DNA from: Capsulimonadaceae bacterium
GTDB lineage: Bacteria > Armatimonadota > Armatimonadia > Armatimonadales > Capsulimonadaceae
Length of the DNA: 64,000 nucleotides
Assembly (NCBI GenBank): GCA_965215505.1
Contig: OZ244065.1
Coordinates: 5,920,001-5,984,000 of the forward strand
Reading direction: 5' to 3'
The notes beneath the pieces are model-generated. The model made no database searches and was not told where the DNA came from. It saw only the letters and a list, made by a program, of their open reading frames with translations. Shown piece after piece: positions 57,613 to 63,584 of the stretch (position 1 is its first letter; each line of letters starts with the position of its first letter). The translations under genes were made by a program, and so were the position numbers.

Positions 57613-58548
57613 TCAGGACTGTAAATAGTCGCGCAGGCGCTTTTTACGGGCGGCGGAGCGCAGCTTACGCAGGGCCTGGGACTCGATCTGGCGGACGCGC
57701 TCGCGGGAGATGTGCAGCTCGTCCCCGATCTGCTGCAAGACGCTCTTGTCGTCCTCGTCGAAGCCGAATCGCTTCCGCATGATGACCTTCTCGCGGTCGT
57801 CCAGCGTGTTCAGGATGGCCTCGATCTCGCCGCGCATCTCCTGGGCGATCAGCTCGTCCTGCGGGTTCGGGGCGTTGCGGTCCAGGACGAGGCTGCCAAG
57901 CGAGGTGCTGTCGTCGTCGCCGACCGTCATGTCCAGCGAAACCGGCTCCTGGGTCGTTTGCAGCAGGCTGTTCATCTTCTTCAGGGACAGGCCGGCGTGG
58001 TCGGCGATCTGTTCGACGGTCGGCTCCTGGCCCAAGACGCGGTGCAATTCGGCGCGGGACTTGTCTATCTTCCGCAGCGACTCGGAGATGTGCGCGGGCA
58101 GCCGGATGGCCTTGGCCTTGTTGTCAATGGCCCGGCCGATGGACTGGCGTATCCACTGGGTCGCGTAGGTGCTGAACCGGTAGCCCATGCGCGGGTCGAA
58201 CCGCTCCGTGGCCGTCATCAGGCCGATGGCGCCTTCCTGGATGAGATCCTCCATCGGGATGCCGCTCGCCAGATAGTTCTTGGCGATGGAGACGACCAGC
58301 CGCATGTTGGACTCGATCAGGCGCTCCTTCGCCGTGTTGTCCCCGTAACGCGCCTTGCGGGACAGAGATTTCTCCTCGGTCGCCGTCAGCAGCTTGGTGC
58401 GGGTCAGGCGGTTGATGTAGGAGGCGAGGTCGTCCGCGAACGACCCCATGACGGGCGCTTCCGGCGCGGGCGGGCGGCCCAACGCCGGGGTATCCCGCGC
58501 GTCGTCCTCGGGCACGCCGTTGAAAAAATGATCGGCTGTCGTGGTCAT
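57613..58548 (-). CDS. RpoD/RpoS-family sigma factor lacking region 1.1
   Basis: NMRLVVSIAKNY, DLIQEGAIGL, RFSTYATQWIRQSI and ISRERVRQIE motifs. Confidence 0.92.
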   Translation of the reverse strand: MTTTADHFFNGVPEDDARDTPALGRPPAPEAPVMGSFADDLASYINRLTRTKLLTATEEKSLSRKARYGDNTAKERLIESNMRLVVSIAKNYLASGIPMEDLIQEGAIGLMTATERFDPRMGYRFSTYATQWIRQSIGRAIDNKAKAIRLPAHISESLRKIDKSRAELHRVLGQEPTVEQIADHAGLSLKKMNSLLQTTQEPVSLDMTVGDDDSTSLGSLVLDRNAPNPQDELIAQEMRGEIEAILNTLDDREKVIMRKRFGFDEDDKSVLQQIGDELHISRERVRQIESQALRKLRSAARKKRLRDYLQS

Positions 58549-58745
58549 GCGTTGCTTGACTTCCACCGTAAAACAAAAAGCCGCGCCGCGTCTCCGTTGA
58601 CACATCCCTCTAGTTCGCCGTGTGCTGTCCATGTTCCTTCCCCATTTGTCCTCTAAGACTACCTGGATTTTTGGAGCGATTTTCGTCAACGCCCGCCGTT
58701 TCTGCTACAATGGGTTTGGAAGCCGACTCTGGAGAACCGCTTGAC

Positions 58746-60071: not shown

Positions 60072-61353
60072 CGAATGCACTTGGCAGTCGCGTGTCTGGG
60101 ACGATACGGCTTCTGACGGAGCCGCGTCGGAAGGTGAAGACCAACCGACAAGGTGTTTGTCACGGATATTGAGCGCGGCATTCTTGTCCGCATTGGCACG
60201 ATGACCACACGAGCGACAAACAAACAAACTTGGACTGGGACGGGCGGTTGCCTCGGTAGCTGTGACCGCAGGCGGCACACCGCTGGCTCGCATGGCGCGG
60301 GTCAATCCCGACCACGCGGCAACCCAGAGCTTCAGCCTTGTAGTCCAAGAACGAGCGGAGTTGGGCGAACGACCAGGAGTGAAGACGCCGTTTGGCCTCT
60401 CCTCTGCTGGCCTTCACCCGCGCCCTGATGTTCGTCAGGTTCTCTACTACGACGGTCATTCCCGCCGTGGTGCCGTCAAGGATGCTCTTCGAAAGCACAT
60501 GATCACAGTCGCGTCGGAATCGTTGCTCACGACCCGCGAGGCGTCGAAGGCGGCGTTTGGCCGACTTCGTGCCTTTCGACTGAAGTTTGCGCTTCAAGCG
60601 GAAGCGACGCTTGCTGACTTCCCGCCAGCGTTTCTTGCCGTGAAGCCTGCCATCGGAGGTGACGGCCGGGCGAGTCACGCCCAGATCAACGCCAAGAGCT
60701 GTGCCGTTGTCGGTGAACTCCATGTCCTCCAGTTTCAGGACGACGTGCAGGGTGAACCGCCCCTTGCGGTACATGAGGTCGGCAGTGGAGACACGATTTC
60801 CAGTCAATGCCGACGCATAGGCAGGAACGCAGAAAGCGACCTTTTGACGCCCCACGACGGTCGCGAGGTTGGCGAAACCCTTCTGCCAGTCCACAGAGAA
60901 CGAGTTGACGTTGTAGCGGGGCGGGCAGAGCGTGGACTGAGGGGTGTTGCCCTTCTTGCCCTTCCTCGCAAGTGCCATCGCAGACTTGACGGCCTCTGCT
61001 GCCTTTTGCCGCGCCTGAACGTGCAGGTCGGAGACAAGGGCGGGGTAAGCCGCCTTGCATTCTCGGTGGGTGAGGCGGTGCAAAGTGTAAGCATTTCCTT
61101 CGCGGAGCCGCCACCCTTGCGAGCAGACAGCATTGAACGACTGCGTGAACTGGCGAATCGTTTCCAGCAGGCTTTTGGCCTGCTCCGCTGTGGGGTTCAG
61201 AGACAACCGCAATGTTCTGTCCATGCTTCAGTTATACTATACAGCAGTACGGTTTTACAACACTTAAAAGGAGACGCGAGGTGGAATACGCCTTCGGCAG
61301 ATAGGAAGCAATCTTCCTGTCACCTAAAGGAGACTTTCCCATTGCTTGTTATT
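60025..61353 (-). mobile_element. Non-autonomous IS200/IS605-family element (tnpB only)
   Basis: Lower GC; tnpB; subterminal hairpin-like ends; removing it yields a sensible gene junction. Ends are inferred. Confidence 0.7.
60060..61224 (-). pseudogene. tnpB: TnpB RNA-guided nuclease, frameshifted before RuvC-III
   Basis: GVDLG, VVENL and WSF motifs; SQRCAACG. FVCRSCG...NADKNAALNI is in another frame because of an extra 4-nt unit at 60216-60229. Confidence 0.88.
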
Positions 61354-62205
61354 ATGGAAGCCCTAATTGAACACACATTAGAGCCGGAGATCGCCGGACC
61401 CGCCCCGCGCCGGACGCGGCTGCCCCTGCGGCTGACACTCCTGCTGGCAGTCGCGATCCTGCTGCTGGGCGTGTTCGCCGCCGGCAGCGGGCGGGCCTTG
61501 TGGGAGGCAGCCCGGTTGAGCTGGCTGGCGGCGGCGGGGCATACTGTGACCGGCCGCATCGTCCGCGTCGCGACGGAGCCGTCCGAAGTCAAGGGACAGC
61601 CGCCGCGCCCGGTCGCCGTCCGGTATGCGGCTGACCTGGCCGGCCCCTCGGGGACCATCCACCGGGAGGGCTGGATCGGGCTGGGCACGCCCGCCGCGCC
61701 CGCCAATGGGGCCGTCGGGATCAATGGGCCGGGGCGGGCCGTCCCCAAGCCGACTTTCCCCGCGCCCGCCCTGCGCGCGGGCCAGCCGGTGCCGATTCGC
61801 TACGCCTCCTGGTTCGGCGGCGTCGCCTCCCAGCCCTGGGTGCCCGACCCGCGCGGGCGGGTCCTGACCCTGATCCTTTCCGGCAGCCTGGTCCTGCTGG
61901 TCAGCCTGCTCCTCCTGCGGCGGCTCCTGAGGTGGATCGGGGAGCGTCTGCACCTGCTGCGCCTGGGGACGGCGACGGTCGGGACGATCACGCACAAGCG
62001 GACCGAGGCCGAGGACATGGTGCGCTACTACCTCCGTTACGGCTACGCTTTTGGGCAGGGCGAGGAGCCGGGGAAGGGGCGGGAACACGAGGAGCAGGTC
62101 AGCATGGACCAGTGGAAGCTGTTCCACGTCGGCCAGCCGGTGACGGTGCTGTACGACCCGGACGAGCCGGAGCGGGTAGGGCTGTACGCGCTGATCCGGC
62201 ACTGA
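61354..62205 (+). CDS. Membrane protein with DUF3592-like domains
   Basis: TM - beta domain - TM - beta domain ending VGQPVTVLYDPDEP. Confidence 0.7.
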   Translation: MEALIEHTLEPEIAGPAPRRTRLPLRLTLLLAVAILLLGVFAAGSGRALWEAARLSWLAAAGHTVTGRIVRVATEPSEVKGQPPRPVAVRYAADLAGPSGTIHREGWIGLGTPAAPANGAVGINGPGRAVPKPTFPAPALRAGQPVPIRYASWFGGVASQPWVPDPRGRVLTLILSGSLVLLVSLLLLRRLLRWIGERLHLLRLGTATVGTITHKRTEAEDMVRYYLRYGYAFGQGEEPGKGREHEEQVSMDQWKLFHVGQPVTVLYDPDEPERVGLYALIRH

Positions 62206-62349: not shown

Positions 62350-63345
62350 TCAATTCGCGACGAAGCGGATCGTGAGGCTTTCGCCATGTTCTGAGGGGTG
62401 ACTGGTGACGAAGGCGTCATAGTCGGCATTGTTGTACCTGATGGGAAACATGCCCTCTTGCGGCACATCACTCCGGGTGATGTCCATCTCCGCCATGACC
62501 TTGATTTTGAAGGTCGTCGGCTCCTGAAGTGATTTCGGGAGTGGGAGGACTTGATCGGACAAGCCCTCGCCGCGTAGCTGAACACGCACCTGCCCGCCTT
62601 CAGGAAGGAATCGCATTTCGGTCGCTTTCGCCTCGATGGCCCACACCAGCAGGGAGTGCTGTAGGGCCTGGACCGGGTGATCGCGATAGAACGTCTCGCG
62701 CCCGGTGTCGGTGGCGACGGAGGCCAGCGCACCGGCGATGTCTCCATTCACGCGAGACACGAAAGCGTCATCCCGCGAAGGGCGAGACTCCGAAAGACTG
62801 TCGTTGACCATGGCAAGGATCCTCCCTTTCAACCGCTGTCGGCCCTGATTGAGCCGGCTCTTTACCGTCGTCATGGGCAGGCCGAGAAACTCGGCGATGT
62901 CCTGGTGTGACCGTTCCCCGAAATAAAAGAGCGTGATCACCTCCCGCTGGCCGGACGGCAGCGACTGGATGGCCCGGCCGACTTCTTCCTCGACCTGATG
63001 CCGCTGCGCGATCTCCTCTAAACCGGGCGTGGAGGCGGGCAGGTGTTCGGCGTGTTGGAGTGGAACCGTGTCCACACGCTTGTTCCGGGTCAGGCGGTCG
63101 CACTGCTTGAAGACGATCTTCCTGAACCAGACCGGGAAGGCCTCCGGCGCGCGCAGGCCAGGCAGTAGGCGATGCGCCTCCACGAACGCCTCTTGGGCGG
63201 CGTCCTGCCCCTCGTGGAAACTGCCCAGGACCGTCGCGGCGTAGGCAGCCGCGCGGTCCTGGAAGCGCCGGACGAGCCAGTTGAACGCTTCCAAATTTCC
63301 CGCCTGCGCCCGCCGCACCTGCCGCGCTGTTTCCTCATCGCTCAT
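62350..63345 (-). CDS. ECF sigma factor with C-terminal PilB/GspE N2D-like domain
   Basis: AFNWLVRRFQ, DAAQEAF, FPVWF and TVKSRL (sigma regions 2 and 4); tail AIEAKATEMRF...IKVMAEMDI...PQEG...GESLTIRF. Confidence 0.88.
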   Translation of the reverse strand: MSDEETARQVRRAQAGNLEAFNWLVRRFQDRAAAYAATVLGSFHEGQDAAQEAFVEAHRLLPGLRAPEAFPVWFRKIVFKQCDRLTRNKRVDTVPLQHAEHLPASTPGLEEIAQRHQVEEEVGRAIQSLPSGQREVITLFYFGERSHQDIAEFLGLPMTTVKSRLNQGRQRLKGRILAMVNDSLSESRPSRDDAFVSRVNGDIAGALASVATDTGRETFYRDHPVQALQHSLLVWAIEAKATEMRFLPEGGQVRVQLRGEGLSDQVLPLPKSLQEPTTFKIKVMAEMDITRSDVPQEGMFPIRYNNADYDAFVTSHPSEHGESLTIRFVAN

Positions 63346-63471
63346 GTCAAATCGCTCATGTCAAATCGCTCATGTCAAATCGCTCATGTCAAATCGCTCA
63401 TGTCAAATCGCTCATGTCAAATCGCTCATGTCAAATCGCTCATGTCAAATCGCTCATGTCAAATCGCTCAT
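63337..63471 (-). repeat. 14-bp tandem repeat (9 full copies + 9 nt) containing the sigma factor start codon
   Basis: ATCGCTCATGTCAA every 14 bp from 63337; the minus strand reads TTGACATGAGCGAT. Confidence 0.95.
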
Positions 63472-63584
63472 ATCGAGTGGTGCCTACTGATAAGACCCGA
63501 GTTCGCGCGGAAAGGTTGAAACGAATAAGCCCCCGCCTCTGGGCCAGAGGCGCGGGCGTTTTTGTTGACCTGTTCACCGGCGCG

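Follow-up and report, generated by a model that had tools for sequence, protein, structure and literature searches.

An extracytoplasmic function sigma factor of a Capsulimonadaceae bacterium fused to the N2D domain of PilB/GspE motor ATPases

What would a sigma factor do with a piece of a pilus motor? The question is posed by one gene in a 64,000-nucleotide (nt) stretch of contig OZ244065.1 from a Capsulimonadaceae bacterium, spanning contig positions 5,920,001-5,984,000 (hereafter the window, whose own positions serve as coordinates below). The gene lies on the minus strand at 62350..63345, with its stop codon at 62350-62352, and the open reading frame list and translation give a product of 331 amino acids (aa). 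We confirmed that this gene encodes an extracytoplasmic function (ECF, group 4) sigma factor fused to the N2D domain of PilB/GspE ATPases, minus their ATPase domain. Our leading answer to the question, offered tentatively, is that the tail would serve as a docking module for the cytoplasmic (Cyto) domain of PilC/GspF, such that the pool of free sigma would follow the occupancy of these platforms by motor ATPases.

The sigma core was recognised by Pfam as Sigma70_r2 at residues 24-90 (sigma region 2; 63076..63276, minus strand; expectation value (E) 1.7e-6) and Sigma70_r4_2 at residues 120-172 (sigma region 4; 62830..62988, minus strand; E 1.3e-15), and VIA-align placed region 2 on sigma2 structures with Z 13-14. 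NCBIfam TIGR02937 (sigma70-ECF) scored 65.3 bits against a cut-off of 42.9, and the N-terminal 180 residues match the solved structures of AlgU, sigmaE and SigW. The presence of r2 together with r4_2 places the protein in the ECF class (group 4), and Pfam gave no r1 or r3 hit in it. About 150 aa follow sigma4, more than the 50 aa beyond which a C-terminal extension is taken as regulatory, and the fusion protein contains no Pfam SnoaL, TPR or WD40 domain. This extension consists of a linker at residues 181-221 (62683..62805, minus strand), defined from alignments and carrying the motif RPSxDxxF..RV, followed by the degenerate PilB/GspE N2D domain at residues 222-331 (110 aa; 62353..62682, minus strand), defined by sequence and fold matches. 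In an AlphaFold2 model built on 19 family members (predicted local distance difference test (pLDDT) 76.8; predicted template-modelling score (pTM) 0.44), the two sigma domains are followed by a disordered segment (residues 180-192), a linker helix and then a compact domain. Sequence databases label the fusion proteins only as 'RNA polymerase sigma factor (sigma-70 family)'.

To identify the compact domain, we compared it with known ATPases by sequence, profile and fold. Pfam matched residues 222-329 to positions 5-112 of the 370-position T2SSE profile (E 2.6e-8; 33.3 bits, cut-off 24.9), and positions 138-286 of the 564-position NCBIfam PilB model TIGR02538 aligned to residues 182-329 (E 8.8e-15). 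Residues 217-328 match the solved structures of Geobacter PilB and Vibrio EpsE/GspE; the tail alone, searched against solved chains, found Geobacter PilB (E 4.1e-10) and EpsE (E 1.8e-8). A profile-profile comparison of 45 fusions with 34 PilB proteins (hhalign) aligned 118 gapless columns at Prob 99.7 and E 2.8e-25. The predicted secondary structure of the tail is a helix at 224-238, strands at 243-248, 252-258 and 265-270, helix alpha2 at 271-284, and strands at 296-304, 307-318 and 321-330. Foldseek returned PilB, EpsE and PilF as top matches of the model (E 6.4e-9 to 8.5e-8; root-mean-square deviation (rmsd) 1.7-1.8 Å over ~109 columns), and VIA-align against the N2D domains of EpsE, GspE, PilB and PilF gave Z 15.0-16.5 at rmsd 1.4-1.8 Å over 104-118 residues, superposing model residues 222/223-331 on Geobacter PilB residues 180-290.

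The protein ends where the N2D ends, and so it has no Walker A motif and no C-terminal domain (CTD). The C-terminal ATPase domain of T2SSE ATPases, with its Walker A, Walker B, Asp box and His box, is absent from the protein, in which the Pfam match stops at position 112 of 370. At the other end, neither MshEN nor GSPE_N1E was hit, the N-terminus being the sigma core, so that the N1D/MshEN part of a PilB protein is also missing. In a scan of the genome, the fusion covered T2SSE profile positions 5-114, 7 PilB/GspE-type ATPases covered positions 2/6 to 369/370, and 8 shorter T2SSE ATPases covered part of the profile. The genome therefore holds 15 T2SSE ATPases in all, and the 7 PilB/GspE-like proteins with an N2D are 22-31% identical to the tail. 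An initial annotation, made from the sequence alone, had described the gene as an ECF sigma factor fused to a PilB/GspE N-terminal domain without a Walker A domain; Pfam, Foldseek and VIA-align bear out the fusion, and the Pfam T2SSE match and the protein itself both end at the N2D. The motifs on which that description was based are upheld by the alignments, with PQEG for PQDG, KIKVMAEMDI for RLKVM..LDI, and HGE, and the structural check that it called for returned the PilB/GspE N2D fold (Z 15-16.5).

We next considered which features of a working N2D the tail has kept. In Geobacter PilB, three N2D arginines (R257, R271 and R286) detect the nucleotide held by the adjacent packing unit (McCallum et al., PMC5424180). 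By sequence and structural alignment, these three residues correspond to M299, F312 and R327 of the fusion. Among the 34 PilB proteins, arginine makes up 97-100% of the columns of R271 and R286, and the R257 column is arginine by consensus only (<90%). Of the 45 fusions, 35 have F, L or V at position 312, with arginine outside the four commonest residues; position 327 is arginine in 29; and position 299 is most commonly L, with arginine in none of the 19 rows of one alignment (A2) and none of the 23 shown rows of another (A4). The fusion thus lacks two of the nucleotide-sensing arginines of a T2SSE N2D (M299, F312) and keeps the third in part (R327). The fusions also depart from PilB at further columns that PilB proteins conserve at 90-100%, including D262 (E/G), H264 (R and others), R275 (Q/E), E310 (R/P/Q) and R312 (D/E), whereas R277 and D279 have become variable and the highly conserved PilB R331 is replaced.

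Other parts of the domain have stayed close to PilB. Retained residues are A236, P270, R/K280, K282, P295-Q296-E297-G298, P317 and G321-E322. Counting the positions at which the fusion and PilB share a consensus residue gives 9/14 for helix alpha2, 4/6 for strand b3 and 6/11 for the alpha2-beta4 loop, compared with the low values of 3/15 for alpha1, 2/6 for b1 and 2/7 for b2. In an AlphaFold2-multimer model of PulE6:PulF3, each PulF Cyto domain binds one N2D through the alpha2 helix and the alpha2-beta4 loop (Guilvout et al. 2023, PMC10790770). With two of the three sensing arginines and other PilB-conserved residues replaced and the alpha2 region still PilB-like, the tail has given up its role in the ATPase cycle, and its best-kept segment is, judged by these alignments, the one that forms the modelled contact with PilC/GspF.

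A set of relatives brings the two partners of that contact together in one chain. Four proteins of 426-438 aa (P0248, P0251, P0253 and P0255) contain, in order, a sigma core, a PilC/GspF cytoplasmic domain (Pfam T2SSF match at 203-286) and an N2D-like domain. Aligned over its whole length to the fusion profile, the tandem protein shows the T2SSF part as an inserted segment, and its last 140 residues match fusion profile residues 216-328 (Prob 92.9, E 3.7e-7). The P0248 tail aligned in register to the PilB profile but weakly (Prob 9.8, E 0.0033), and the N2D-like identity of this segment therefore rests on the fusion-profile match and on its fold. A model of the tandem protein (pLDDT 78.4) matched ECF sigma factors and the PilB/GspE N2D, and its middle domain matched the Cyto domains of EpsF, PilC and OutF at rmsd 1.1-1.2 Å over 88-92 columns (target template-modelling score 0.75-0.81). 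These proteins provide independent evolutionary support for the modelled contact between N2D and platform.

To place these proteins, we built sigma-core trees with FastTree (155 rows) and with a short IQ-TREE search (83 rows; all N2D, T2SSF, FliG/FliM, LRR, methyltransferase and nucleotidyltransferase rows plus a subset of the others, 72 rows being dropped). N2D-tailed and T2SSF-tailed sigma cores intermingle in the trees. A 36-row clade with support 99 comprises 33 N2D or N2D-like rows, 2 methyltransferase rows and 1 T2SSF row; P0250 falls inside the main N2D clade (support 99), and the N2D protein P0029 is sister to the T2SSF protein P0308 (support 98-99). The four tandem proteins form a clade of their own (99), which adjoins the N2D clade in FastTree (94), a placement that IQ-TREE did not confirm.

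The relatives of the sigma core carry many kinds of tail. Over residues 1-205, the core is 44-58% identical to numerous ECF proteins. Nearly all of these are long-tailed, with a length of 219 aa or less in only 3 of the best 120 of 205 near-length relatives and frames of 359-1396 aa at the 18 best genome loci. The tails are joined at the same place, after the RPSxDxxF..RV motif that is common to the clade; a strict regular expression found this motif in 9 of 28 related loci. Among the near-length matches listed, Pfam assigned the tails to T2SSF (6), FliG_C (5), FliG_N+M (3), PheRS alpha core (6), ankyrin (16), methyltransferase (2), HEAT (2) and nucleotidyltransferase (2), and to FliM in one protein (a further FliM tail is encoded at locus L024), with SAICAR synthetase, HisKA/HATPase, receiver, GGDEF and glyoxalase tails occurring once each. 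The tails of 49 longer relatives include ankyrin (19), TPR (5), SecA (3), LRR (2), ClpS with ATP synthase alpha/beta (2) and DNA polymerase III alpha (DnaE; 1), and 15 of the 49 have a tail without a named domain. Two further kinds of tail, UvrA (L018) and ATP synthase alpha/beta without mention of ClpS (L019, L020, L025 and L026), come from genome loci, and clade members occur beyond Armatimonadota in Chloroflexota, Latescibacterota, Gemmatimonadota and Gammaproteobacteria. The sigma core thus belongs to a large ECF clade, apparently undescribed, whose C-terminal domains are exchangeable. GNAT was also seen among the tail domains of the clade (relatives P0172-P0317; loci L010-L026). Separately, the same genome encodes a second clade member (G000:C1:1190559-1191128; L218 571-2166, minus strand), a 531-aa protein with a nucleotidyltransferase-like tail that is 47% identical to the fusion over residues 9-198 and gave weak PADLOC hits (cyclase and PDC-S09).

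We propose, on the strength of these observations, that sigma would be controlled by its fused C-terminal domain and not by a partner anti-sigma gene. The N2D tail would dock sigma on the cytoplasmic domains of PilC/GspF, the platform protein of the type IV pilus or type II secretion system, at the sites normally taken by the motor ATPases; the genome encodes six T2SSF proteins. How much sigma is left free to associate with RNA polymerase would in turn depend on the number of motor-occupied platforms, and sigma would drive its own promoter. We infer in this PilC binding, a direction of control that may be either sequestration or activation, autoregulation and a regulon. The initial annotation had suggested that sigma activity may be coupled to the pilus or secretion motor. 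This coupling retains circumstantial support from the tandem PilC and N2D proteins, the FliG and FliM tails, the kept alpha2 helix and the lost arginines, with the platform protein PilC a likelier partner than the motor ATPase, but neither adjacent pilus genes nor a regulon came to its aid.

A broader form of this proposal, which we consider less likely than not, is that one ECF lineage has been fused repeatedly to copies of machine subunits, giving 'subunit-mimic' sigma factors in which the borrowed domain competes for a docking site and so reports its occupancy, or an attack on it. PilB N2D, PilC Cyto, FliG, FliM, SecA, DNA polymerase III alpha, ATP synthase alpha/beta, PheRS alpha and UvrA may be examples, and the N2D version would be the one that reports occupancy of type IV pilus platforms by motors.

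Several observations weigh against platform docking. Many tails of the clade (ankyrin, PheRS, SecA, DnaE and methyltransferase) are unrelated to pili, and the mode of control may accordingly be independent of any machine. In the alpha2-beta4 loop, the fusions have not preserved PilB residues E310 and R312, and the N2D:PilC contact itself is a published model and not a solved structure (PMC10790770). The relative placement of the domains is not readable from our models, with a pTM of 0.44 for the full-length fusion and 0.37 for the tandem relative. Pilus or secretion genes stood beside the sigma gene in none of the 5 loci examined. Searching 5 genomes for the promoter described below with up to 2 mismatches gave no regulon, at 8-12 sites per genome compared with 14-30 for the reversed control. 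Finally, the fusion is patchy, occurring in 7 of 24 genomes of the genus, whereas a PilC orthologue is present in 40 of 41 genomes of the order.

We ranked the alternatives from an intramolecular switch, through docking on a CTD and a decoy, to a relic, and left the remaining probability to mechanisms that we have not thought of. In the first of these, which is unlikely but the strongest of the four, the tail works within its own chain as in ECF41, folding onto sigma2, sigma4 or the linker to switch sigma, with no role in pili and the N2D as mere scaffold. Extensions of ECF sigma factors are known to act in this way (SnoaL in ECF41 and the Cys-rich extension of ECF238; PMC8999054), the linker motif RPSxDxxF..RV is found across the clade whatever the tail, which fits a common mechanism close to sigma, and W235, which is invariant and specific to the fusions, could pack on the linker helix. 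However, a fold-back contact would need to be re-invented for each unrelated tail, the most PilB-like part of the N2D is the outward partner surface in the published PulE:PulF model (PMC10790770), and the full-length model has no confident domain arrangement at its pTM of 0.44.

Docking on the other half of the motor is somewhat less probable again. Here, the tail would mimic the N2D half of a PilB packing unit and bind the CTD of a PilB/GspE/PilT-type ATPase, with non-hexameric subunits holding or releasing sigma. The main inter-chain contact in solved PilB hexamers is indeed that of the N2D on the next CTD, at ~1,600 Å2 (PMC5424180; PMC11656802), and the 7 PilB/GspE-like and 8 other T2SSE ATPases of the genome are candidate partners. 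Nevertheless, the 90-100% conserved PilB residues that face the nucleotide or the neighbouring CTD are mostly replaced (D262, H264, R275, R277, R312 and R331), a closed hexamer leaves no free CTD site, and the tandem relatives couple the N2D with a PilC domain and not with a CTD.

The tail could also be an integrated decoy for phage or competitor proteins that attack the motor, whose binding would release or activate sigma and trigger a counter-response; we consider this improbable. Phage proteins that block PilB exist (Tip, Aqs1 and Zip; reviewed in PMC11656802), an ECF sigma factor that controls defence genes has been described (PMC11506125), and the tails of the clade, which copy core machines (SecA, DnaE, UvrA, ATP synthase alpha/beta, PheRS and ClpS) or are ankyrin, TPR and LRR repeats, resemble decoys and repeat sensors. 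On the other side, PADLOC had no match for the fusion or for 6 of 7 co-scanned proteins, the exception being the nucleotidyltransferase-tailed paralogue with its two weak hits, and no defence genes were recognised in the neighbourhoods scanned.

The tail is very probably functional and not a relic. Six tail residues (P224, W235, A236, K282, Q296 and E322) are invariant in all 45 aligned members. The ratio of nonsynonymous to synonymous substitution (dN/dS; Nei-Gojobori, window gene compared with two unsaturated orthologues) was 0.215 and 0.186 in the sigma part, 0.176 and 0.168 in the linker and 0.271 and 0.222 in the N2D; we did not rely on four further pairs because their dS exceeded 1.3. 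By these substitution ratios, the N2D is under purifying selection. In distant clusters from metagenomes, tail identity falls to 35-39% and the architecture persists.

A word-indexed search with the tail found 20 proteins, all of 328-338 aa and with tail identity of 59-100%, and 19 of them carry PF00437 plus the sigma domains. When 1.84 billion representatives were searched exhaustively with the tail, 4,079 proteins matched at E <= 0.001, nearly all of them ordinary ATPases. A Pfam scan of 18 short hits from this search identified 4 proteins with sigma and T2SSE domains (P0023, P0024, P0029 and P0064), one with sigma domains only whose tail still aligns (P0026), 10 MshEN+T2SSE ATPase pieces, one HTH_17+T2SSE protein, one with T2SSE only and one without a hit. 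Searching with the sigma core instead, we found PF00437 in 38 of the best 120 of 205 relatives. A tail scan of metagenomes added one orthologous locus among the 80 kept, the others being PilB genes.

The named relatives are from metagenome-assembled genomes of Armatimonadales and Armatimonadota. A match at E <= 1e-20 was present in 12 genomes of a 301-genome sample of the phylum; 4 of these matches are fusions with frames of 336-380 aa (the window genome and 3 of the same genus), and 8 are of PilB type with frames of 437-631 aa. Across 39 genomes of the family, the gene occurs in 7 of the 24 of its genus and in 0 of 15 across nine other genera. The full-length frame is intact in 6 of those 7 (G310 has a 101-aa remnant). 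This remnant and its matching record are a decayed copy in another species of the genus (L029 8001-8331; L186 1501-1831), in which residues 47-254 are deleted, so that residues 1-46 are joined to 255-330, and the upstream -35 element is degraded. Although this decay and the patchy occurrence within the genus speak for a tail without function, left over from the accidental joining of a sigma gene to a truncated pilB, the selection data contradict such a relic, which we regard as very improbable given a tail dN/dS of 0.22-0.27, near that of sigma, an architecture that holds down to 35-39% tail identity and the 6 full-length frames.

ECF promoters typically have AAC in the -35 element and a -10 element of GTC/CGT type. 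A candidate ECF-type promoter, AACCTTT-N12-GGGTCTTA, lies at 63491..63517 on the minus strand and is conserved in 7 orthologous loci, where the upstream sequence is CAACCT(T/C)T-N12-GGGTCT(T/C)A; the spacing is the same in all of them, while the spacer sequence varies. Each of 5 genomes has the exact pattern once, always at the sigma gene, compared with 0 for the reversed control. With a position weight matrix (PWM) of the 7 orthologous promoters, the gene's own promoter tops the genome at 34.6 bits, compared with 21.5 for the next site, which is upstream of another ECF gene. Conservation of this candidate promoter suggests autoregulation. We set aside one recurrent extra near-match site as a regulon target; it lies inside the coding start of a conserved ABC ATPase.

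The leader of the gene has an unusual structure. Tandem Repeats Finder identified a 14-bp tandem repeat at 63337..63471 on the minus strand (9.6 copies, 100% matches), located downstream of the candidate promoter and extending over the start codon. Within each unit are an ATG, a frame of five codons (MSDLT) and a TGA overlapping the ATG of the following unit, so that the leader offers nine decoy starts; no Shine-Dalgarno sequence is present in the leader. The orthologues have one degenerate copy of the 14-bp unit or none. Short-read contigs break at the array, repeat-only contigs have 7-10x the flanking depth, and one low-depth contig from another study skips exactly 126 bases, equal to 9 units. 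Changes in the copy number of the array may tune translation of sigma. The genome contains 42 exact arrays of period 10-20 with at least 5 copies.

To relate the fusion to known systems, we compared it with described ECF extensions. The parts described for these in reviews and in the 2021 reclassification are SnoaL, TPR, WD40, Cys-rich, zinc-finger, DUF1835 and transmembrane (PMC7826278 and PMC8999054). The accessible sections of PMC7826278, part of its supplement and the accessible sections of PMC8999054 do not mention T2SSE, PF00437, GspE, PilB, pilus, FliM or ankyrin, and a 2024 review of PilB regulation (PMC11656802) does not mention sigma. No description of an N2D extension was found in the ECF literature searched, which comprised open full texts; the initial annotation likewise knew of none. 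On this basis, we take both the N2D extension and its surrounding modular clade to be undescribed in the literature searched.

The fusion resembles ECF sigma factors with extensions of more than 100 aa (PMC8999054) in its sigma2-sigma4 core, in having no anti-sigma gene alongside and in an extension of the kind thought to bind another protein, but its extension is a PilB/GspE N2D, and in its close sigma relatives many other domains take the place of this tail. Like ECF41 (SigJ), it is a single-chain, one-component sigma factor with an extension in place of an anti-sigma factor; ECF41 differs in its SnoaL domain, which the fusion lacks, and in a mechanism in which the extension contacts the sigma2-sigma4 linker. 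With the N2D of PilB, GspE and PilF (PDB 5TSH, 1P9W, 4KSR and 5OIU) the tail shares the fold and the motifs LPKSLQ, RIK..AEMDI, PQ(D/E)G and GE, whereas the N1D/MshEN and CTD are missing, the equivalents of R257 and R271 are replaced and that of R286 is kept in 29 of 45. The contact segment of the PulE N2D:PulF Cyto model matches the most PilB-like part of the fusion, and the tandem relatives unite the same two partners in one chain, but the model is computed for Klebsiella type II secretion and has no bearing on sigma factors. A more distant parallel is the FlgM/sigma-28 checkpoint, in which sigma activity also reports the assembly state of a surface machine. That system uses a separate, exported anti-sigma factor instead of the direct docking through a borrowed domain proposed here, and there is no homology between the two.

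ECF sigma factors with regulatory tails are a recognised but little-tested class, most groups of which have no experimental member. A tail built from part of a pilus or secretion motor would give such sigma factors a new kind of signal, namely the state of a surface machine, with no anti-sigma factor, kinase or second messenger in between. The range of tails suggests that the wider clade may outweigh this single gene, as a modular way of wiring arbitrary protein-protein contacts to transcription, with relevance to signalling in poorly studied phyla (Armatimonadota and Chloroflexota) and to synthetic sigma-based sensors.

The surroundings of the gene vary. Upstream of the sigma gene lies a K+ channel gene (Pfam Ion_trans_2/TrkA_N), and a DUF3592 membrane-protein gene (61330-62202, plus strand) converges on it. 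Further downstream are a gene for a 354-aa IS605-type TnpB (60160-61224, minus strand; OrfB_IS605 and Cas12f1-like TNB), which lies between the DUF3592 and ABC ATPase genes and is absent at the matching position in one related locus (L104), and then the ABC ATPase gene. A primary-type sigma-70 of 358 aa, with regions 1.2, 2, 3 and 4, is encoded 3.7 kb from the ECF gene at 57613-58689 on the minus strand. The relatives have different neighbours, such as lipoyl synthase, glutaminase A, an NmrA-like protein and an amine oxidase. Among the neighbours in the window and in the relatives' loci, Pfam recognised no known anti-sigma domain, in keeping with the earlier suggestion that a C-terminal extension stands in for an anti-sigma factor. 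The combination of no recognised anti-sigma gene and variable neighbours is the usual pattern when an ECF sigma factor carries a regulatory extension (PMC7826278 and PMC8999054). The convergent DUF3592 gene adjoins the sigma gene in the window and in L104, is one gene away in L101 and is absent in L102 and L103; with no neighbourhood conserved across all loci, we judged its proximity to be synteny among close kin. Elsewhere in the genome (G000:C1:4620966-4622678), an ordinary 185-aa ECF gene lies ~400 bases upstream of a gene for a 347-aa T2SSE ATPase on the same strand, a second pairing of a sigma factor with a secretion ATPase, in this case unfused.

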